A DNA stretch of 64,000 nt from assembly GCA_021803575.1 (NCBI GenBank), contig JAJZLH010000010.1:11055-75054 (forward strand), written 5' to 3'. Shown here one piece after another: positions 9,906 through 30,063 of the stretch. The first letter of the stretch is position 1; every line of letters begins with the position of its first letter. The notes under the pieces are model-generated. The model had not been told where the DNA came from. It saw only the letters and a program-made list of their open reading frames with translations, and ran no database searches. Both the position numbers and the translations under genes were made by a program. This stretch comes from Bacillota bacterium. Its GTDB lineage: Bacteria > Bacillota > Sulfobacillia > JAJZYS01 > JAJZLH01.

Positions 9906-9981
9906 TGGTGGAGGCGGGGGGAATCGAACCCCCGACCTATTGATTGCGAACCAATCGCTCTCCCGACTGAGCTACGCCCCC
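9906..9981 (-). tRNA. tRNA-Ala (anticodon CGC)
   Basis: Reverse complement reads GGGGGCGTAGCTCAGTCGGGAGAGCGATTGGTTCGCAATCAATAGGTCGGGGGTTCGATTCCCCCGCCTCCACCA. It has a 7-bp acceptor stem with the G3:U70 wobble diagnostic of tRNA-Ala, a D-arm GCTC/GAGC, an anticodon loop TTCGCAA (anticodon CGC), a T-arm GGGGG/CCCCC with TTCGATT loop, and an encoded CCA. Confidence 0.85.
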
Positions 9982-10549: not shown

Positions 10550-11433
10550 TGACCACCCTCACGCATACCCCCGTCATGCTGGACGAGGTGCTATCTCTGC
10601 TCGAGCCTGCCCCTGGCATGACCTACGTCGATGTCACCATCGGCGGTGCCGGGCACGCCGTGGAGATAGCAGGGCGGATCGGGCCTACTGGGCGCGTGAT
10701 CGGCATCGATCGGGATCCGTGGGCGATCGAGGCGGCGGCGCGCCGTCTGGCTGAGACAAATGTCCCGTTTAGCCTGCACCACGGCCGGTTCAGCGAGTTA
10801 GAGCGGTTTCTGGCAGCCGACGGCGTGAGTGAGGTTGACCTCTTGCACGCCGACCTCGGCGTGTCTTCTGCTCAACTGGACGACGGCACGCGCGGCTTCT
10901 CCTATGCCGTCGATGCTGAACTGGATATGCGCATGGACCCGACTGAGGGTGAGTCCGCTGCGTTGCTCCTGGCCAGAGCGCCTGAACGGGAACTGGAAGA
11001 CATAATCGCGAACTACGGCGAGGAGCGCTATGCACGACGAATTGCCAAAGAGATTGTTCGGGCCAGACGTACGAGCCCCATCGCCACCACCGGAGATCTG
11101 AGCGCCATAATTCGAAACGCCATCCCGGGCCCAGCCAGGCGGGGACCGGGGCACCCTGCTAGGCGAACATTTCAGGCGCTGCGCATTGCGGTCAATCAAG
11201 AGTTGCAGGAACTAGAAGGTCTTTTGTCAACTGTCCCGAACGTGCTTAGACTTGGTGGCCGTGCCACCGTGCTCGCATTCCACTCACTGGAGGATCGCCG
11301 CGTGAAGCAGGCCTTCCAGGCACCTACGCTTCACCGTCTGACCAGCAAACCGTTGCGGGCGACCGAGGAAGAGGTCGGCCGCAACCGACGGGCGCGCAGT
11401 GCCAAGCTGCGCGCCGTAGAGCGTGTGCAGTGA
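10546..11433 (+). CDS. rsmH: 16S rRNA (cytosine1402-N4)-methyltransferase RsmH (MraW)
   Basis: 'HTPVMLDEVL...YVDVTIGGAGHA' SAM-binding region; start overlaps the mraZ stop (ATGA). Confidence 0.9.
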   Translation: MMTTLTHTPVMLDEVLSLLEPAPGMTYVDVTIGGAGHAVEIAGRIGPTGRVIGIDRDPWAIEAAARRLAETNVPFSLHHGRFSELERFLAADGVSEVDLLHADLGVSSAQLDDGTRGFSYAVDAELDMRMDPTEGESAALLLARAPERELEDIIANYGEERYARRIAKEIVRARRTSPIATTGDLSAIIRNAIPGPARRGPGHPARRTFQALRIAVNQELQELEGLLSTVPNVLRLGGRATVLAFHSLEDRRVKQAFQAPTLHRLTSKPLRATEEEVGRNRRARSAKLRAVERVQ

Positions 11434-20763: not shown

Positions 20764-21477
20764 TCAGGCTGGGAACGACTCGGCCGCGATCTCCTGGACG
20801 CGGCGCGCACACATGTCGAGCAGTGCCTCGCCCTTCTCCGGCGTGGCGTGGCGCGGCTGGCCATTCACGGCACCCGGGAAGCGGCTCTCACGCCCCGCTA
20901 GCTCCTTGTAGGTCAGCCTGGCGAGGCGCGGCGGCGTCTGGTCTGGCGTGTCCTCCAGGTGAACCCAGTTCGGATCGATCGCCATCACCGCTGCCGTTTC
21001 GTCGGCGCCGGCGTGGCCAGCCCCCTCGATGATGGCGTCGATCTCCCGGCGAAAGTCCATCCACCAGTGCACGATCACCACGGCGGCGCCGACCTCCGCC
21101 GCCTCCTCGGCGGCCAGGGTCAGGGCGCCGTTGTTGCCGCCGTGGCCGTTCAGCCAGATCTGGCGGGGCAGGCCAGCGCGGACCAGGGCCACTGCCACGG
21201 CGGAGACGTAGCGCAGGAAGGGCCGGGCGGGGATGTCCACGGTTCCGGCGAAGGGCGCCAGATCCCAGGAGTGACCGTAGGGGATTTCGGGCAGGAGGAG
21301 AAATCTCTTGGGGTCAGCCCGCTCCACTCGCCGGCCGATCTCCACCGGAATTACAATGTCAGTGCCGAGCGGCGCATGCATGCCATGGGCCTCGACCGTT
21401 CCGATCGGCAAGAGCGCTACAGGCGACGCTTCCCTCAGAGACGAAAATGCCCGGGAGGTCAACTCACTGATGCGCAT
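20764..21477 (-). CDS. creatininase-family amidohydrolase (creatinine amidohydrolase/ArfB-like)
   Basis: Start at M44 of ORF ('MRISELTS'). 'LLPIGTVEAHG', 'IPYGHS', 'NGHGGN' family motifs. Antisense to flanking ftsZ and pgeF. Confidence 0.7.
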   Translation of the reverse strand: MRISELTSRAFSSLREASPVALLPIGTVEAHGMHAPLGTDIVIPVEIGRRVERADPKRFLLLPEIPYGHSWDLAPFAGTVDIPARPFLRYVSAVAVALVRAGLPRQIWLNGHGGNNGALTLAAEEAAEVGAAVVIVHWWMDFRREIDAIIEGAGHAGADETAAVMAIDPNWVHLEDTPDQTPPRLARLTYKELAGRESRFPGAVNGQPRHATPEKGEALLDMCARRVQEIAAESFPA

Positions 21478-21513
21478 GGCTTCCCCCTTGATCCGTCCTT
21501 GCACCGTCTGTTC

Positions 21514-22344
21514 GTGAGCGGGCCAGGCATTCACCTGCCGGCCGCCGAGGCCTTCGAGCTGACCTGGCGGGGCGAGGTGGCGCTCCTCCAGCCGCCCGGC
21601 TGGCAAGCCTCCGGTGTCGTGGCTGCCGTCTCCACCCGCATCGGCGGCGTGTCAGAAGGGGCCTATCGGGCGATGAATCCATCGCTGTCCAGCGGCGACG
21701 ACCCGGCGCGGGTGGAGGAGAACCGGCGGCGGCTGGTCCTGGCCATCGGCGCCTCCGGCTGGCCGGTCGCCACCGCCCACCAGGTGCACGGCAAGGCGGT
21801 GCACGTCGTGGCCACCCCGCCCGAGCTGGCCTGGGGCCAGGGGATATCGCCGCGAGCCGATGCTCTGGTCACGGCCCTGCCCGGCGTATTGCTGGCGCTG
21901 GTGGTGGCTGACTGCGTGCCCATCCTGCTCCGTGCCCCTGCCGGCCGGGGGGTGGCGGTGGTGCATGCCGGCTGGCGCGGCAGTGCCGCCGGCGTCACCG
22001 AGGCGGCGGTCAGAGAATTATGTCGTCTCACCGGCGCAGCCGCCGATGACCTGGAGGCCGCGATCGGCCCGGCGATCGGCCCGGGATGCTATCCGGTCGG
22101 GCCAGAAGTGAGGCAGGAAATTCTGCTTAATCACCCGTGGGCGCTTGCGGAAACGGCTGACGGCCGCCTCGATCTGCCCACCCTGCAGCGTAAGATCCTG
22201 GAGCGGGAGGGCCTGAAACCAAAGTCCGTATTGACTTCCGGGCTTTGCACCAGGTGCTGGCCGGACCTCCTGTTCTCCTATCGGCGAGACGGTCGGGCAA
22301 GCGGCCGGATGGCGGCCATAATTGGGCTGGAAAAGCAGGAATGA
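21514..22344 (+). CDS. pgeF: peptidoglycan editing factor PgeF (YfiH / laccase-domain, DUF152)
   Basis: GTG at V186 of ORF 20959-22344. 'VVADCVPILL', 'HAGWRG', 'CTRCWPDLLFSYRRDG' are conserved YfiH motifs (His/Cys ligands). Confidence 0.8.
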   Translation: MSGPGIHLPAAEAFELTWRGEVALLQPPGWQASGVVAAVSTRIGGVSEGAYRAMNPSLSSGDDPARVEENRRRLVLAIGASGWPVATAHQVHGKAVHVVATPPELAWGQGISPRADALVTALPGVLLALVVADCVPILLRAPAGRGVAVVHAGWRGSAAGVTEAAVRELCRLTGAAADDLEAAIGPAIGPGCYPVGPEVRQEILLNHPWALAETADGRLDLPTLQRKILEREGLKPKSVLTSGLCTRCWPDLLFSYRRDGRASGRMAAIIGLEKQE

Positions 22345-23544: not shown

Positions 23545-23799
23545 GTGATCTTCTTGGTCGAGCTCATCGGCAAGCTGCTGATTCTCGCCATCCTGGTCCG
23601 AGCGCTGATGACGTGGTTCTCGCCACCGCGGCCGGGCGGCGGTTTCTGGATGGTGGCGCATGCCCTGGACCGGGTGACTGAGCCGGTGGTCTCGCCCATC
23701 CGGCGGCGCCTGCCCACCTGGGGCGGTTTCGATCTGGCACCGCTAGTGGCGATTGTGGTCGTCTATCTGGTGATGAGTGTGGTGGTCTGGGTCCTGTAG
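23545..23799 (+). CDS. yggT: YggT-family membrane protein (Ycf19/YlmG)
   Basis: 84 aa, two TM helices; conserved position between sepF and divIVA. Confidence 0.7.
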   Translation: MIFLVELIGKLLILAILVRALMTWFSPPRPGGGFWMVAHALDRVTEPVVSPIRRRLPTWGGFDLAPLVAIVVVYLVMSVVVWVL

Positions 23800-23818
23800 T
23801 GACAAAGGAGGCGTCGCG

Positions 23819-24268
23819 TTGCTGACCCCGCTCGACATTCAGAACAAGGAGTTCAAGAAGGGCTTTCGCGGCTACGACGAACAGGAGGTGGACGCCTACC
23901 TGGACGAGGTGGTGCGCGACTTCGAACTGGCCCTCAAGGAGCGGGACGATCTGAAGGCGCAGGTGGCGGAGGCCCAGCGCCAGGTGCAGCAGTATCGGAC
24001 GCTGGAGGAGCAGCTGCAGAAGGCCCTCTTGGTGGCGCAGCAGACAGCGCAGGAAGTGGTGGAGGCGGCGCACAAGGAGGCGCAGCTGATCACCGAGCGC
24101 GCTGATCTGGAAGGGAAGCGGATGGCCGAGGAGGCCAGGGCGTCGGTGCGGGCGGTGGAGGAGGAGGCGGCCAGGCTGCGCAGCGAGTTGGAGGTGTTCC
24201 GGGCCAAGACCCGCTCGCTGCTCGAATCTCAGCTCAGGCTGTTGGAGGGTACGCCTGGCACCGACTAG
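23819..24268 (+). CDS. divIVA: cell division protein DivIVA
   Basis: TTG start at L15 of ORF 23777-24268, preceded by AAAGGAGG at 7 nt. Product '(M)LTPLDIQNKEFKKGFRGYDEQEVDAYLDEV' is the canonical DivIVA N-terminal lipid-binding domain followed by a coiled coil. Confidence 0.85.
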   Translation: MLTPLDIQNKEFKKGFRGYDEQEVDAYLDEVVRDFELALKERDDLKAQVAEAQRQVQQYRTLEEQLQKALLVAQQTAQEVVEAAHKEAQLITERADLEGKRMAEEARASVRAVEEEAARLRSELEVFRAKTRSLLESQLRLLEGTPGTD

Positions 24269-24269
24269 C

Positions 24270-25202
24270 ATGGATTGGATCGGACCGGGCATCTGGCAGG
24301 GGGACGCCTTAGAGGCGGCCTCCTTGTTGCCCTTGGACTCGATCGACCTGGCCTATCTGGACCCGCCCTTTGGCACCGGACGCACCCGCAGCGGCCCCCT
24401 CGGCCGCTATCCGGACGGCTGGCAGGGCGCCATGGCACACGCCAGCTGGCTGGTGCGATGCTGCGTCGGACTCTGGCCGGCGCTCCGAGAGGGGGGAACG
24501 CTCTGGCTGCACCTCGACGCCCGCACGGTGCACCACGCCCGCGTGCTCCTGGACGATCAGCTGGCTGGCGGCACCTGCCGCAACGAGGTGGTCTGGTGCT
24601 ACAACGGCGGCGGGCTGCCCAAGCGCGACTTCCCGCGCAAGCACGACGTGTTGCTCCGCTACGTGAAAGGCAAGGACTGGACCTTTCACCCGGCACGCCA
24701 GCCCTATAAAGCGAACACGCAGGCGGTCGGGCGCCACTCCAGCCGGGCCCGCCGGGTGGCCATTGATCTGGGCAGGGGCACCCCCCACACCGACTGGTGG
24801 ACAGATATCCCCACCGTCACCGGCTGGGCACCGGAGCGGCTTGGCTACCCCACCCAGAAGCCACTGCAGCTTCTGGAGCGCCTGATTGCGGCCACGTCTA
24901 ACCCGGGCGACCGGGTGGTCGATCTGTTCATGGGCAGCGGCACCACCCTGGAAGCGGCAGCCCGCCTCGGCCGTTGCTACCTGGGGGTCGACGCCTCGGC
25001 CGCCGCCTGCGACCTGGCCGCCAGGCGGCTCCGACCGTGGCAGGCGGCGGCCTGGCCGGTTGCGCTGGAGGGGGTGGGGACGGGACAAGCGGGCGGGACG
25101 GCGGAGGTTGGCGCTCAGGTCACCAGCCGCAGGAGGAGCGGGGTCACGAAGCTTTCAACCAAGGCGGCCACCAGCAAGAGGCCGATCGGCAAGAGCGTGT
25201 AG
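24270..25202 (+). CDS. beta-class DNA amino-methyltransferase (N6-adenine or N4-cytosine), no cognate REase recognised
   Basis: Motif IV 'IDLAYLDPPFGTG' is N-terminal and motif I 'VVDLFMGSGTTLEAA' is C-terminal (order IV...I = beta class, like CcrM/M.RsrI/M.PvuII). The ATG sits 1 nt after the divIVA stop. The C-terminal ~55 aa is low-complexity, and the last 88 nt overlap the convergent gene 25115-25717. Confidence 0.75.
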   Translation: MDWIGPGIWQGDALEAASLLPLDSIDLAYLDPPFGTGRTRSGPLGRYPDGWQGAMAHASWLVRCCVGLWPALREGGTLWLHLDARTVHHARVLLDDQLAGGTCRNEVVWCYNGGGLPKRDFPRKHDVLLRYVKGKDWTFHPARQPYKANTQAVGRHSSRARRVAIDLGRGTPHTDWWTDIPTVTGWAPERLGYPTQKPLQLLERLIAATSNPGDRVVDLFMGSGTTLEAAARLGRCYLGVDASAAACDLAARRLRPWQAAAWPVALEGVGTGQAGGTAEVGAQVTSRRRSGVTKLSTKAATSKRPIGKSV

Positions 25203-25717
25203 TAGAGCGGGCGCTGGCGCACGCCGGCCGGGCGGGAGGCGGCGACGGCCAGGCCGATGCCGAAGGCGTAGGCGCCGATTTCAAACACACCGTGCGGTAA
25301 GATGCCGGCCAGCATGACCAGCGGCCAGGCGGCGTGATGGGCGCGGGCGATGGCGGTGACGACCAGGCCGCCGATGATGGCGTTGACAAAGAGCAAGAGC
25401 ACGAACAGGGCCAGGGCGCCGTAGCCCAGCACAAGCCGGCCAAGGCGGCTCTTCAGGCGCAGCAGGAGGGCGGCCAGCAGGACGAGGGCCAGCACCTTGA
25501 GGTTGTTCAGAAAGATACCGAGCGCCCGGGCCAGCGGGGACGGTGAGAACAGCAAGGAGGAGAACATGCTGTGCTCGAAGCCGTGGCTGACCATGGTGGA
25601 GAGGTGGCCGAGGCTGCTGGGACTGAAGCTCTGAGCGAGGGCGCTGAACAGGAGCATCACCGCGAAGAAGAGGAGGAAGACGAACAGGGAAAACCGCCGG
25701 ATCTGGCGCCCTGTCAC
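25115..25717 (-). CDS. polytopic membrane protein, SpoIIM/DUF95-like
   Basis: 200 aa with ~6 TM helices. 'ILPHGVFEIGAYAFGIGLA' resembles the SpoIIM-family 'PHG.FE' motif. Last gene of a three-gene minus-strand operon (4-nt overlap with the upstream gene). Confidence 0.45.
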   Translation of the reverse strand: MTGRQIRRFSLFVFLLFFAVMLLFSALAQSFSPSSLGHLSTMVSHGFEHSMFSSLLFSPSPLARALGIFLNNLKVLALVLLAALLLRLKSRLGRLVLGYGALALFVLLLFVNAIIGGLVVTAIARAHHAAWPLVMLAGILPHGVFEIGAYAFGIGLAVAASRPAGVRQRPLYYTLLPIGLLLVAALVESFVTPLLLRLVT

Positions 25718-26139
25718 CGCCGCACTCCGTCGTCCGGTTGGCCGAGCGCCCGCCAGAGCTGCTCCCAGATGGAGTGGCGCATCATCAGGCAGATATCTCC
25801 GGCCCGGCAGCGGTCGGCTGCCTTGAAGGCATCGCCCAGCAGGTACTGGAGGCGGAGGCGATCGGCGGCACCGAGTTCGACCTCAGACGTGAACAGCGTG
25901 TCCCAGAAGTGGCAGGCGGCGCGCTCCCAGCGGTTTACCGGCACAGCTGGGTCGTAGCTGGGCGGGGTCAGGACCTGAGAGTCCTGCCAGGTGAACTCGC
26001 CGATCCGGCGCAAGAGCGCCTCGTCCAGCACGCAGGCCACCACGTTGGCCAGAAGGGCGGTGGCCGCCTGGCGCTCTGGGCGGTCTGGCCGGGGCAGACT
26101 CAGGCGCACCGTCTCAGCTGACGGCGACGGCTCACTCAC
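25714..26139 (-). CDS. hypothetical protein (141 aa)
   Basis: No recognised motifs. Translationally coupled to both neighbours (overlaps of 4 and 8 nt). Confidence 0.4.
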   Translation of the reverse strand: MSEPSPSAETVRLSLPRPDRPERQAATALLANVVACVLDEALLRRIGEFTWQDSQVLTPPSYDPAVPVNRWERAACHFWDTLFTSEVELGAADRLRLQYLLGDAFKAADRCRAGDICLMMRHSIWEQLWRALGQPDDGVRR

Positions 26140-26908
26140 GCGGCGGATCCCCCTTCAAGGTCAGCGGAAAGACGGTGGGCCGAAGGTCGGAGCGCACTGG
26201 CGCCGGGCTGGGCGCTGGGGTGAAGGTGATCACGGCATAGCCGCCGTCCTGATCACGCTCTTCGGCCAGGTAGGTGGCGGTGTGGCCCGGCGCCGCGCCC
26301 AGGAGCACGAAGAGGTGGGCGAGCTCGGCGTCGGGGTGGCCGTCGATCCAGTGCTGGGCGCCCACGTTTAGGATCTCCGCCCCCTCGCCTTGCTCCAGCA
26401 GGTGACGGAGGGTGCGCTCAAAAGCCTCGGGGCCCTCGCTGTTGCCTCCTGTGCTGCGCGTGGTGGCACCCACCACCACCAGTGCCACCGGGACAGAGGC
26501 CTGGGTGCATGCCGTCTGGATGGCCTCGCCGACCGCCATCGACCGCTCCGGGGCGTGGGGCGGCACGCTCACCGCCAACAGCCCATCTCGCAACTCAGGC
26601 AACCAACGGCCGAGATAGGCCTGGCCCTCCGCTTGCCACTGGCTGTCAGCCGCGTCCGGCCAGAAGTCGCGCTCGGCCAACTGGTGGCAGATCTCGTGGC
26701 GCAGGGCCTGGGCGGTCGGCCCGGACGGCTCTGAGACGGAAAGCCGAGGACTCCGCCACCGGGAGTCGATCATCACGACCTGTCCGACCCCGGCCTGGGT
26801 GAGGGTGGCCAGGGCACGGCCACAAGCCTCGGCGAGTGCGCCGGAGGCACCCGGCATGGCAGCGGCCGGAGGCAGGAAGAGGGGGAGCAGTGCGGGAGTG
26901 GTGGTCAC
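26132..26908 (-). CDS. class-III extradiol dioxygenase (LigB/DODA/YgiD)-like protein with substituted N-terminal metal ligands
   Basis: 258 aa (DODA is ~262 aa). Co-linear, weak similarity to E. coli YgiD recalled from memory: 'PALLPLFLP' vs 'MPALFLGHGSP' (His lost); 'VVMIDSRW' vs 'VVVSAHW' (His to Arg); 'GAQHWIDGHPD' vs 'GNVVHNL...WHGD'; 'HLFVLLGAAPG' vs 'PLLYVLGAWDG'. GTG start. Confidence 0.4.
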   Translation of the reverse strand: MTTTPALLPLFLPPAAAMPGASGALAEACGRALATLTQAGVGQVVMIDSRWRSPRLSVSEPSGPTAQALRHEICHQLAERDFWPDAADSQWQAEGQAYLGRWLPELRDGLLAVSVPPHAPERSMAVGEAIQTACTQASVPVALVVVGATTRSTGGNSEGPEAFERTLRHLLEQGEGAEILNVGAQHWIDGHPDAELAHLFVLLGAAPGHTATYLAEERDQDGGYAVITFTPAPSPAPVRSDLRPTVFPLTLKGDPPRE

Positions 26909-27056
26909 AGGCCCATCCTACCCGAGGCAAAGGCGGCCGACAACTCGGCAGGCGGCTCCCTCGGCAGGCCAGGCCATGGGTGCCGTGACGGCCGCCCCGG
27001 CCGGAGGGCACCGCTTCTGCCTGCCGGGTCTCGGCATGGCGGACGGAGCGGGCGCT

Positions 27057-27085: not shown

Positions 27086-27089
27086 CTCG

Positions 27090-27306
27090 GCAACCGATGA
27101 CCGAGACAGGCCACCCAGGCGACGCCATCACAGCGACCCGCAGCTGGTGCAAGGCGGGACGGCGACTGAGGCGGCATCCCTCGGGAGGGCCCAGGCGAAG
27201 CCAGTAGCCGGGCCGGATCCCCCCGTTAGCGGGTTCGAGTGGGGGCAACCCCAACGAAGGTGGTACCGCGGTCCGTCCGCCCTTTGGCGCACGGGCCTTT
27301 TTGTTT
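27090..27306 (+). promoter_or_regulatory. T-box riboswitch leader (presumed Ile-responsive) controlling ileS, ending in an intrinsic terminator
   Basis: F-box CCGTTA at 27223-27228. T-box consensus AAGGTGGTACCGCGG at 27257-27271 (compare AGGGUGGNACCGCG). Its 3' end overlaps the 5' strand of the terminator GGTCCGTCCGCC-CTTT-GGCGCACGGGCC + TTTTTGTTT (27270-27306). An AGTA box lies at 27203-27206; candidate Ile specifier AUC-A at 27127-27130. Sits 22 nt upstream of the ileS ATG in a 420-nt intergenic region. Confidence 0.65.
27270..27306 (+). terminator. intrinsic terminator of the ileS T-box leader (12-bp stem, 1 mismatch, 4-nt loop, U-tract)
   Basis: GGTCCGTCCGCC / CTTT / GGCGCACGGGCC followed by TTTTTGTTT. 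Confidence 0.6.
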
Positions 27307-27327: not shown

Positions 27328-30063
27328 ATGGCCGAGGCGTTGAAGACGACCTTGAACCTTCCCCGCACCGAGTTCCCGATGCGGGCGGACCTGGCGCGGT
27401 CCGAACCGGAGCAGGTGGCACGCTGGCGGGCCATGGACCTGGCGGCGCTGGTGCACCAGGCCAGAGCCGGCCGCCCGGCGTTTGTCCTGCACGATGGCCC
27501 GCCCTATGCCAACGGGCACATCCATCTTGGCACGCTGCTCAACAAGACGCTGAAGGACATGATCAATAAGTACTGGACCATGCAGGGCAAGGACGCCCGC
27601 TACGTGCCGGGATGGGACACGCACGGCCTGCCCATCGAGCGGGCGGTGCAGCTGCGCGACGGGAACCAGATCCGGCTTGACCCGCTGAGGCTGCGCCAGG
27701 CCTGCCGTGCCTATGCCGAGGACTACATCGCCATCATGAGCGAGGAGTTCGAGCGGCTGGGGGTGAGGGCCGACTGGGCGCATCCCTACGTCACTCTGGC
27801 GCCGGCCTTCGAGGCGGCCGAGGTGCGGGTCTTCGCCCGCATGTACGAACTGGGCCTGATCAATAAGGATTTCAAGTCCGTGAACTGGTGCCCGGAGTGC
27901 GAGACTGCCCTGGCTGAGGCCGAGATCGAGTACGCGGAGATCACGTCGCCGTCCCTCTACGTGGCCTTTCCGGTCAGGGCGGCGGTGGGCCCCCTCCAGC
28001 CGGGCGACCGTCTCCTGGCCTGGACCACCACCGCCTGGACCTTGCCGGCCAACCGCGCGCTGGCCGTCCACCCCGAGATCCGCTACGTGCGGGCGAGCGG
28101 GCCCGAGGGCGCTCTGGTGCTGGGCAAAAGCGCCTACCAGCGCCTGGCCGCCGCCCTGGCTCTGCCGCCGGTGGTCGAAGAGTTTTCTGGCCAGGCGATG
28201 GTCGGCGCCTCGGTCGAGCACCCGCTGGAGGAACGCCTGGTGCCGGTGCTGGCCGGCGGCCACGTCACCGACTCAGAGGGCACCGGGATCGTCCACACCG
28301 CGCCTGGACACGGCGAGGAGGACTTTGAACTGGGCCGCAGCGCCGGTCTGGAGGTGGCCGTGCCGATCGACGCCAAGGGCATCTTCACCGCCGAGGCTGG
28401 TGCGCTGGCCGGGCTGGGCTACAAGGCTGCCTATGAGCCGATCGTGGCCGCCCTGAAGGGGCGGGGACGGCTGGTCGGCGAGCATCCCTACCGGCACAGC
28501 TACCCGCACTGCTGGCGCTGCCATGGCCCGATCCTGTTCCGGGCCACCGAGCAGTGGTTCTGCTCGATCTCCAAGATCCGCCCCCAGCTGCTTGAGGCGA
28601 TCGCCGAGGTGGCCTGGAGTCCGGCCTGGGGAGAGGAGCGCATGCGCCAGATGACCGCCGAGCGGGGCGAGTGGTGCATCTCGCGCCAGCGGGCCTGGGG
28701 CCTGCCCATCCCGGCGCTGTACTGCCAGGGCTGCGGTCGGATCGTGGTCAGCGAGGCGGCTGAGACGGTGGCCCGGGTGTTCTCCCAGGAGGGGTCCGAC
28801 GCCTGGCTGGTGAGGCCGGCCGAGGACTTCCTGCCCCAGGGCTTCACCTGCCCGGACTGTGGCGGCAGGGCCTTTCGCAAGGAGACCGACATCCTGGATG
28901 TCTGGTTCGACTCCGGGTCCTCCCACGTCTCGGTCCTGGCCGGAGAAGGTGGGCTGGGCTGGCCGGCCGACCTCTACCTGGAAGGCACCGACCAGTTCCG
29001 GGGCTGGTTCAACTCCTCCCTGACCACTGCCGTGGCCATCCGCGGCCGGGCCCCCTACCGCCAGGTCCTGTCCCATGGCTTCATCACCGACCAGCTCGGT
29101 GACAAGATGTCGAAGAGCCGCGGCAACGTCGTCACCCCAGCCGACCTGATCGGCACGTACGGTGCCGACATCCTGCGCCTGTGGGTCGCCTCCAGCGACT
29201 TTCGGGCCGACATCTCGGTTTCAGATACCATCCTGGCCCAGACGGCTGAGGCGTACCGGAAGCTGCGCAACACCCTGCGCTTCCTGCTCGGCAACCTGGG
29301 CCGCGCCTCGACGCCGCTGCCCGAGCCCGCCGCCCTGCCTGAGCTGGAGCGGCTGATCCTGTCCCGCCTGGACGCCCTGATCGGGCGCGTCGACCAGGCC
29401 TACCGGCGCTTTGACTTCCACGTGGTCAGCCAGCAGCTCAGCCGCTTCGTCTCGGTCGATCTGTCCAGCTTCTACCTGGACGCCAGAAAGGATCTGCTCT
29501 ACACCGCCCTGCCGGAGGACCCTGAGCGCCAGGCGGCGGTGTCGGTCCTGGAGCAGCTGGCCCGCACCCTCACCCTCCTGGTGGCGCCGATCCTCACCTT
29601 CACCAGCGAGGAGGTCTGGCGGTACCTGCCGCACCGGGCGGGTGATGCCGAGACCGTGCAGCTGGCCGACTTTCCGAAGGCCGGGCGCTTCCGGGACGAG
29701 GCCCTGGAGCGCCACTACCAGGAGCTGGAGCGGGTGCGCCAGGAGGTGCTCCGCGAGCTGGAGATGGCACGGGTGGCCGGTCGCATCCACGGCTCTTTGG
29801 ACGCCAGGGTGCGGCTCAGAGCCAGCGGCCCAGACCTGACGCGGCTCACCCGCTCGGAGGCACTCCTGCCCACACTCTTCGTCGTGTCTCAGGTCGAACT
29901 GGTGTCGGGTGCTGATGAGCTCAAGGTCGAGGTGGAGGCGGCTCCAGGTGAGCGGTGCGAGCGCTGCTGGCGGGTGCTGCCCGAGGTGCGGCCCCATGCC
30001 CTGGGCCTTATCTGCGAGCGTTGCGCGGGGGTTTTGGCCCGTCTGGCCGAGCGAGCAGAATGA
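27328..30063 (+). CDS. ileS: isoleucyl-tRNA synthetase (type 1, C-terminal zinc finger)
   Basis: ATG at M10 of ORF preceded by GGGGAGGGG. HIGH-type 'PYANGHIHLGT', 'KMSKSRGN', C-terminal 'CERCWRV...CERCAGVL'. Confidence 0.95.
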   Translation: MAEALKTTLNLPRTEFPMRADLARSEPEQVARWRAMDLAALVHQARAGRPAFVLHDGPPYANGHIHLGTLLNKTLKDMINKYWTMQGKDARYVPGWDTHGLPIERAVQLRDGNQIRLDPLRLRQACRAYAEDYIAIMSEEFERLGVRADWAHPYVTLAPAFEAAEVRVFARMYELGLINKDFKSVNWCPECETALAEAEIEYAEITSPSLYVAFPVRAAVGPLQPGDRLLAWTTTAWTLPANRALAVHPEIRYVRASGPEGALVLGKSAYQRLAAALALPPVVEEFSGQAMVGASVEHPLEERLVPVLAGGHVTDSEGTGIVHTAPGHGEEDFELGRSAGLEVAVPIDAKGIFTAEAGALAGLGYKAAYEPIVAALKGRGRLVGEHPYRHSYPHCWRCHGPILFRATEQWFCSISKIRPQLLEAIAEVAWSPAWGEERMRQMTAERGEWCISRQRAWGLPIPALYCQGCGRIVVSEAAETVARVFSQEGSDAWLVRPAEDFLPQGFTCPDCGGRAFRKETDILDVWFDSGSSHVSVLAGEGGLGWPADLYLEGTDQFRGWFNSSLTTAVAIRGRAPYRQVLSHGFITDQLGDKMSKSRGNVVTPADLIGTYGADILRLWVASSDFRADISVSDTILAQTAEAYRKLRNTLRFLLGNLGRASTPLPEPAALPELERLILSRLDALIGRVDQAYRRFDFHVVSQQLSRFVSVDLSSFYLDARKDLLYTALPEDPERQAAVSVLEQLARTLTLLVAPILTFTSEEVWRYLPHRAGDAETVQLADFPKAGRFRDEALERHYQELERVRQEVLRELEMARVAGRIHGSLDARVRLRASGPDLTRLTRSEALLPTLFVVSQVELVSGADELKVEVEAAPGERCERCWRVLPEVRPHALGLICERCAGVLARLAERAE

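Follow-up and report, generated by a model that had tools for sequence, protein, structure and literature searches.

The interval between divIVA and ileS (positions 24270–26908) was analyzed in a 64,000-nt stretch of DNA (hereafter the window) from an uncultured Bacillota bacterium (GenBank assembly GCA_021803575.1, contig JAJZLH010000010.1, positions 11,055 to 75,054 of the forward strand). The interval consists of two independent units: a gene for a DNA methyltransferase (MTase) linked to divIVA, and a convergent group of three genes (the trio) encoding, in the order of transcription, a LigB-like protein, a 141-aa protein without recognizable domain (p141), and a membrane protein of the DUF95/SpoIIM family. 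Both units are native to the chromosome and have been inherited vertically in a small lineage of uncultured high-GC Bacillota. With slightly better than even confidence, the locus as a whole is read here as a native orphan MTase belonging to the division operon, next to a separate, vertically inherited trio associated with the cell envelope. The interval is flanked upstream by yggS-sepF-yggT-divIVA and downstream by a T-box leader, ileS, lspA, rluD, pyrR, pyrB, and pyrC. A preliminary description had given gene content, coordinates, and flanking order (sepF-yggT-divIVA and ileS-lspA-rluD-pyrR) as they were found here, but had interpreted the four genes as one accessory insertion.

The separability of the two units was evident from the gene order in related lineages. 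The MTase gene lies directly 3′ of divIVA in six of them (the window, L098, L007, L013, L009, and L018), and this fixed position holds down to ∼50% DivIVA identity (L018). The trio is kept as a block in seven (the window, L098, L007, L013, L009, L099/L100, and L101). Downstream of the MTase gene, the trio follows in the window, L098, L007, and L013, and ccmF follows in L009 and L018. The order in L009 is divIVA-MTase-ccmF-two small open reading frames (ORFs)-MFS transporter, then the convergent DUF95/p141/LigB-like trio, and then ileS, four unrelated genes thereby splitting MTase and trio. The order in L018 is yggS-sepF-yggT-divIVA-MTase-ccmF, with ccmF overlapping the 3′ end of the MTase gene by 16 nt and with no trio found within 6 kb. 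Finally, in L099 it is a convergent MFS gene that comes after the trio, in place of an MTase gene; the trio has such a neighbor in L009 as well. Because MTase and trio separate in L009, L018, and L099, they are two units and not one module; occurrence of the trio independently of the MTase in relatives had been named in the preliminary description as an outcome that would refute the single-insertion view. The divIVA-MTase-ccmF arrangement (positions 11135–14039 in L009 and 5875–8792 in L018) may be the ancestral order, ccmF having been lost or moved in the lineage of the window.

Composition and divergence of the four genes were then compared with those of their surroundings. The GC content was 0.69–0.72 throughout the interval and its flanks, and GC at third codon positions (GC3) ranged from 0.83 to 0.91 for the four genes versus 0.81–0.90 for the flanking core genes. 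The synonymous divergence (dS) from L098, a relative with 84% identity, was 0.29–0.37 for the four genes and 0.20–0.25 for divIVA and ileS. Amino acid identity was compared with L007, L013, and L009, which are progressively more distant. Identities to L007/L013, and then to L009, were 68–72% and 50% for the MTase, 77–79% and 36% for the DUF95 protein, 67–69% and 50% for p141, and 52–54% and 31% for the LigB-like protein; the corresponding values were 87–89% and 59% for DivIVA, 74–78% and 61% for ileS, and 65–69% and 56% for yggS. Identity of the four genes to their relatives therefore falls in step with that of core genes. No integrase, repeat, or tRNA boundary was found at the interval, the sole tRNA gene of the window being located at 9909–9981. 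The native origin of both units and their vertical inheritance follow from GC and GC3 equal to the flanks together with dS and identity that track the core genes.

These data bear directly on the idea that the locus is a single four-gene accessory island between divIVA and ileS, serving as a defence or novel DNA-modification module. Compared with the Bacillus-type gene order, in which divIVA is directly followed by ileS, the genome does contain an additional 2.6 kb; four closely related lineages have the four genes side by side; and MTases are common in defence islands, the one found here matching 70 generic MTase models of PADLOC, with type II MTase models as the best. However, an island of this kind is difficult to reconcile with the gene orders in L009, L018, and L099, with composition, dS, and identity resembling those of core genes, with the lack of an integrase, repeat, or tRNA boundary, or with the translational coupling of the MTase gene to divIVA. 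Moreover, the trio proteins gave no PADLOC matches at E ≤ 1. We consider an island very improbable. The locus had been described as looking accessory, which GC, GC3, dS, and identity contradict, and no evidence was obtained for the suggested role in defence. The accompanying statement that the architecture is that of no known restriction-modification (RM), toxin-antitoxin, or defence system agrees with PADLOC matching the MTase only.

Since DNA of 70% GC contains long chance ORFs on every strand, coding status was tested separately. Gene callers found the same four genes in 21 independent contigs, a sequence identical to the window is present in the metagenome-assembled genome (MAG) GCA_027344905.1, and orthologs of the four genes were found in several related contigs. 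The ratio of nonsynonymous to synonymous divergence (dN/dS), computed, like dS, versus L098, was 0.125 (MTase), 0.097 (DUF95 protein), 0.171 (p141), and 0.266 (LigB-like protein); for comparison, divIVA and ileS gave 0.076 and 0.161, respectively. Together with the flank-like GC3 values and the orthologs in related contigs, dN/dS between 0.10 and 0.27 establishes that the four ORFs are genuine genes under purifying selection and not chance ORFs.

The MTase gene (24270–25202, plus strand) encodes 310 aa and matched PF01555 over residues 25–251 with 123.7 bits (gathering threshold 26.7; E 1.4e-35). Motif IV (DPPF, residues 31–34) precedes motif I (FMGSGTT, residues 220–226), both motifs being invariant in four orthologs. 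Because motif IV is N-terminal to motif I, the enzyme is assigned to the β-class of DNA amino-MTases, as had already been proposed. Its best match in the PDB was M.BceJIV (8urk, 87.6 bits), and M.RsrI, CcrM, and M.MboIIA were also found. N6-adenine enzymes of the PDB scored between 55 and 88 bits against it, N4-cytosine enzymes between 29 and 35 bits; the protein is probably specific for N6-adenine. 

The conserved core of the enzyme (262 aa, 24270–25055) is followed in the window copy by a tail of 48 aa (25056–25202), which is specific to it and of low complexity; orthologs end at 266–276 aa. In the DNA alignment, indels relative to L098, the closest relative, lie just ahead of the tail and have created it. 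The tail reaches into the DUF95 gene from its 3′ side, in antisense orientation, so that the two convergent genes overlap by 88 nt (25115–25202), as they do in none of the orthologs. A scan for terminator-like sites between the convergent MTase and DUF95 genes found none.

The upstream neighbor, divIVA (23777–24268, plus strand; PF05103, E 1.5e-39), is the final conserved division gene of the ylmD-yggS-sepF-yggT-divIVA block; in the identical contigs, gene callers place its start at 23819 (149 aa). The MTase ATG is located 1 nt past the divIVA stop codon in the window. Likewise, the two genes abut with a 1-nt gap in L098, L007, and L013 (the placement in L007 and L013 being taken from ORF coordinates), and they overlap by 17 nt in L009 and by 4 nt in L018. 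By this arrangement, the gene is translationally coupled to divIVA. The coupling suggests that the enzyme, a solitary β-class DNA MTase, would be expressed together with the division genes, as the tail of the sepF-yggT-divIVA operon. Among 80 loci retrieved in a metagenome scan with the MTase profile, division genes were upstream in one, namely L018, which belongs to the lineage. The other metagenomic relatives are 31–50% identical, stem from genomes of 28–67% GC, and are often larger fusion proteins. A limited literature search returned no report of an MTase embedded in a divIVA operon.

Dam and CcrM are clade-conserved orphan methylases. Another such enzyme is CamA (PMC13395437), and M.BceJIV (8URK) is an orphan N6-adenine epigenetic regulator of Burkholderia cenocepacia that targets GTWWAC (PMC11380664). 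With M.BceJIV, CcrM, and CamA, the MTase of the window shares the β-class PF01555 architecture, in which motif IV (DPPF/Y) is close to the N-terminus and motif I (FxGSGTT) close to the C-terminus, the lack of an adjacent nuclease gene, and a chromosomal position fixed across the lineage. It differs from them in being coupled to divIVA inside a division operon, and its identity to the solved enzymes is low. The position fixed through divergence and the coupling to divIVA are the reasons to liken it to clade-conserved orphan methylases and not to a component of an RM system. As such, it would mark the chromosome in a housekeeping or epigenetic regulatory role comparable with those of M.BceJIV, CcrM, and CamA.

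A type II RM system, with p141 or the LigB-like protein acting as an unrecognized nuclease, would be the conventional alternative. The best PADLOC matches of the MTase are indeed type II models, and novel restriction enzymes often have no detectable domains. Still, the MTase gene separates from the p141 and LigB-like genes in L009, L018, and L099, the distant p141 homologs have no MTase gene next to them, the predicted structure of p141 matched no nuclease-like fold, and retention in synteny across ∼50% DivIVA divergence is atypical of RM genes. In addition, neither Pfam nor NCBIfam nor PADLOC gave a nuclease or defence match among the neighbors of the MTase gene, in the window or in the relatives' loci. 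A type II RM system is thus given even less credence than the four-gene island. Of the division-linked DNA modification envisaged in the preliminary description, the part concerning the MTase alone survives in weakened form, by way of the coupling to divIVA; it does not extend to the trio.

On the minus strand, three translationally coupled genes make up an operon that converges on the MTase gene. The LigB-like gene comes first (26132–26908, 258 aa, with a GTG start at 26908), followed by the p141 gene (25714–26139, 141 aa) and, third, the DUF95 gene (25115–25717, 200 aa). Read off the sequence, the LigB-like gene overlaps the p141 gene by 8 nt and the p141 gene overlaps the DUF95 gene by 4 nt (GTGA), the GTG start of the latter overlapping the p141 stop codon; coupling within the trio had likewise been noted before. 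A candidate promoter resembling those read by sigma-70 (26915–26943, minus strand) consists of TTGTCG (26943–26938), a 17-nt spacer, and TAGGAT (26920–26915), and lies in a conserved block: the window, L007, and L013 share GGTTGTCGGC and GGTA(G/C)GATG. Because the candidate promoter ends 6 nt before the GTG start, the trio mRNA may be leaderless or nearly so; the trio would be transcribed from its own promoter abutting the start codon. Past this block and up to the ileS promoter region, the DNA of the three lineages differs in both sequence and length.

On the other side of this variable stretch, a T-box leader (27088–27287, plus strand) precedes ileS (27328–30063), the downstream flank of the interval. 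No element of the region passed the Rfam gathering threshold. The T-box was recovered in a permissive Rfam search; with 51.6 bits versus a gathering threshold of 93, it is missed by the default search. Both its GGUGGUACCGCG box and its terminator-like hairpin, which has a U-run, are intact; L007 and L013 carry an almost invariant copy of the element; and a −35-like hexamer, TTGACC, is located just upstream at ∼27063.

The product of the first gene of the trio scored below the threshold of PF02900 (16.9 bits), which its L009 ortholog passes with 40.7 bits. When the profile was enriched with divergent orthologs and compared with the whole PDB, it matched 3vsg_A (E 3.4e-8), 8ihg_B (E 0.011), and 7txy_A (E 0.15), all of which are AmnA/CnbCa α subunits of 2-aminophenol 1,6-dioxygenase; no catalytic LigB-fold chain of the PDB was matched at E ≤ 10 by the same profile. 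A phmmer search of the PDB with the L009 ortholog yielded noise only, and a profile search for further relatives returned the same five proteins again. Membership in the LigB superfamily is supported by these matches, whereas the 2-His-1-carboxylate Fe(II) site with two N-terminal His residues is lacking. As had been noted for the window protein, the usual His ligands are absent from the N-terminal half, where none of the eight LigB-like family members has a conserved His; in the window protein, His occurs first at residue 71, a position that is not conserved. Besides D81, the first 80 residues of the family include no His, Asp, or Glu that is invariant. Where catalytic relatives have their His-ligand motifs, the family has LFLPP and DSRW/TTAW, an assignment based on the alignment with 3vsg_A and on the known features of the family. 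The sole invariant His, H198, resides inside the conserved block W-I-x-G-x-P-D-A-E-L-x-H-L-F.

The sequence comparison thus describes a protein with a LigB fold that has lost the N-terminal pair of iron-ligand His residues. The loss of these ligands, together with the closest resemblance being to the AmnA α subunit, makes it probably a pseudoenzyme or ligand-binding scaffold. The AmnA/CnbCa α subunit is itself presumably non-catalytic. In 2-aminophenol 1,6-dioxygenase, iron and active site are in the β subunit, and α and β need each other for folding (PMC10470539). The AmnA/CnbCa α subunits (3VSG_A, 8IHG_B, and 7TXY_A) are the nearest solved relatives of the LigB-like protein, but the genetic context is different: AmnA functions as one half of a heterodimer, the other half being a catalytic β subunit of LigB fold whose gene is adjacent (PMC10470539), whereas the partners here are p141 and the DUF95 protein, and there are no genes of a meta-cleavage pathway near the trio. 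No second copy of any trio gene, including a β-like LigB paralog, was found in the window, and no β-like paralog in the related loci. At the C-terminus of the LigB-like protein (26132–26200, minus strand), a Pro-rich linker is followed by P-T-(V/I)-F-P-L-T-L-K-G in the closer orthologs, a motif that could dock a partner, for instance p141 or the DUF95 protein.

The second protein, p141, had been reported to have no recognizable domain, and indeed it gave no match in Pfam, NCBIfam, PADLOC, or PHROGs; the last three libraries were likewise empty for the other two trio proteins, save for one spurious NCBIfam match of the DUF95 protein. Seven relatives were retrieved when 5.8 billion proteins were searched by word index; an exhaustive search of 1.84 billion cluster representatives with a profile hidden Markov model identified four real p141 clusters and added only P0012–P0014. 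One further candidate, P0015 (1260 aa), was rejected as an artefact, because ∼11 near-identical repeats of ∼100 aa had summed weak matches to E 2.5e-13. p141 was found in only two species representatives of GTDB, both unclassified Bacillota MAGs, and the profile had no match among the viral contigs of IMG/VR. The protein is acidic and soluble (isoelectric point 5.4), has a conserved core of ∼110 aa, and contains 44 invariant positions including LLAN, LDE, NRWERA, and HFWDT. Its structural model is confident and helical and matched no known fold. p141 is therefore regarded as representing a new and very narrow orphan protein family.

The distant members of this family reside in diverse surroundings. 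P0014 (134 aa), the most distant homolog, lies between LytR_cpsA_psr/Peptidase_S11 genes and an MCP gene; at this locus (L015, 6683–8405) it is divergent from the LytR_cpsA_psr gene, which is followed by the Peptidase_S11 (DD-carboxypeptidase) gene. This is the sole neighborhood hint of a cell-envelope link for the p141 family. P0013 has an SDR gene on one side and a gene for an M20 peptidase on the other. A 49%-identical homolog was found on contigs of 45% GC from the same metagenome project as the window (L010, 2404–3335, and L011, 7399–8417), where it is translationally coupled to an upstream ORF for a Cys/His-rich protein of 172 aa. This ORF was considered as a relative of the LigB-like gene and, with an hhalign probability of 0.07, found to be unrelated. 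Two paralogous genes for uncharacterized proteins of ∼306–343 aa lie nearby, as do genes for a TacA-like antitoxin, a NUDIX protein, and a phage-type Dam, a context which suggests horizontal transfer of p141 by a mobile element; a tblastn search of phage and plasmid collections with the low-GC homolog found nothing.

The pairing of p141 with a LigB-fold protein raises the most credible rival explanation, one we nevertheless deem unlikely: the trio could encode an active class III extradiol dioxygenase of aromatic or pigment metabolism, with p141 as a LigA-like subunit and the DUF95 protein as an anchor or as a handler of substrate or product. The likeness to LigAB is a helical protein of ∼140 aa whose gene adjoins, and is translationally coupled to, that of a protein of the LigB superfamily fold; LigAB (protocatechuate 4,5-dioxygenase) combines an all-helical subunit of ∼140 aa with a LigB-fold subunit. 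Furthermore, H198, E128, R122, and the WI.G.P.A.L.HLF block are invariant and could form a remodelled active site. Against such an enzyme stand the absence of the N-terminal His ligands, the affinity to an α subunit instead of a catalytic chain, and the fact that p141 showed no similarity to the LigA small subunit (PF07746).

The third protein matched PF01944 nearly from end to end (model positions 2–163 of 163; 52.8 bits versus a gathering threshold of 26.9; E 5.6e-14), in line with its initial description as a SpoIIM/DUF95-like membrane protein. It is basic (isoelectric point 11.7) and strongly hydrophobic, with hydrophobic segments at residues 5–33, 62–93, 91–127, and 169–200 and a predicted number of about five transmembrane segments. 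No solved relative was found in the PDB. NCBIfam SpoIIM models gave no match at E ≤ 1, the sole NCBIfam match being a spurious one to MetS.

SpoIIM is the proposed scaffold of the SpoIID/SpoIIP engulfment machinery, and the DUF95 gene might accordingly be a true spoIIM, with the trio as a sporulation or engulfment operon. A polytopic membrane protein with a full-length PF01944 match, a Bacillota host, and a locus beside the division cluster would all be expected of a spoIIM gene. The failure of NCBIfam SpoIIM models to match is not, and neither is a candidate promoter that appears to be sigma-70-like instead of sigma-E-like. Furthermore, the gene is not on its own but in an operon with genes for two cytosolic proteins, which are not SpoIID or SpoIIP. 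Spore-formers usually carry spoIIGA-sigE-sigG after ftsZ; this block is missing after ftsZ in the window, which offers no sporulation context. A true spoIIM is, therefore, somewhat less credible than the dioxygenase. The division cluster of the window includes, flanked by ftsZ and ylmD, a gene of the creatininase family (20764–21606, minus strand; PF02633, E 3.7e-50). It fills the place that spoIIGA-sigE-sigG usually has in spore-forming Bacillota, and it keeps this position in L007.

The least probable of the explanations weighed here is that the DUF95 gene marks a circular bacteriocin cluster or another cluster for ribosomally synthesized and post-translationally modified peptides. Circular bacteriocin clusters have a DUF95/SpoIIM protein, of the same Pfam family as the one found here, as a hallmark, and they need a precursor peptide and at least one transporter in addition (PMC8659200). 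At this locus, precursor, transporter, and immunity gene are all lacking: the stretch from divIVA to ileS contains neither a small cationic ORF nor a gene for an ABC transporter, and the sole intergenic space is filled by promoters and the T-box. Nor could p141 be the precursor, being an acidic, soluble protein with a core of ∼110 aa, as opposed to the cationic, hydrophobic bacteriocin cores of ∼60–70 aa. Thus, neither set of partner genes, SpoIID/SpoIIP or bacteriocin, is present at the locus.

Returning to the favored interpretation, the LigB-like protein and p141 would assemble in the cytosol and dock together on the DUF95 membrane protein. Such an arrangement would parallel the way SpoIIM scaffolds SpoIID and SpoIIP, and it would serve a lineage-specific housekeeping role associated with the cell envelope. 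Gene identities, coupling, conservation, the separability of the units, their vertical inheritance, the fold assignment, and the loss of the His ligands are taken as demonstrated; that the MTase acts as an orphan or epigenetic enzyme, that the trio proteins form a complex, and that they work at the envelope is inferred. Several points weigh against this interpretation. The link to the envelope is weak, drawing as it does on the analogy to SpoIIM, the adjacency of the division cluster, and a single distant homolog of p141 next to LytR_cpsA_psr and Peptidase_S11 genes. P0013, P0014, and the L010/L011 homologs of p141 stand without LigB-like or DUF95 neighbors, so p141 need not be partnered with a LigB-like or DUF95 protein. 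The structural model of the LigB-like protein is of low confidence (pLDDT 52), and an alternative metal site made up of the invariant H198, E128, R122, and D193 may mean that it is still an enzyme. The candidate promoter of the trio agrees with the consensus at 8 of 12 positions, below the cut-off of 9 of 12 used by the scanner. As for the MTase, the absence of a nuclease covers its neighborhood and the 64-kb window, and a cognate nuclease may be encoded elsewhere in the genome.

A bolder version of this interpretation holds that the MTase is CcrM-like and coupled to the cell cycle, and that the trio is a membrane-anchored machine in which a LigB pseudoenzyme and a protein of new fold are mounted on a DUF95 scaffold. 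We regard this version as doubtful, if conceivable. Were it true, chromosome methylation would be linked to division or polar growth in Gram-positives, and the large DUF95/SpoIIM family, with engulfment and bacteriocin maturation as its described contexts, would gain a third.

What is new at this locus is the subfamily of LigB-fold pseudoenzymes, the p141 family, and their combination with a DUF95 protein, which is confined to a few uncultured high-GC Bacillota; the MTase is a familiar kind of enzyme in an unusual operon position. The locus is not a new defence system and should be seen as a modest lead, the trio providing a new genomic context for DUF95/SpoIIM proteins. If the MTase is truly an orphan and its expression goes together with that of DivIVA, few methylases built into a cell-division operon would compare with it, and its methylation motif, with the distribution of that motif near division or replication genes, would provide a handle on epigenetic control in an uncultured lineage of the Bacillota.

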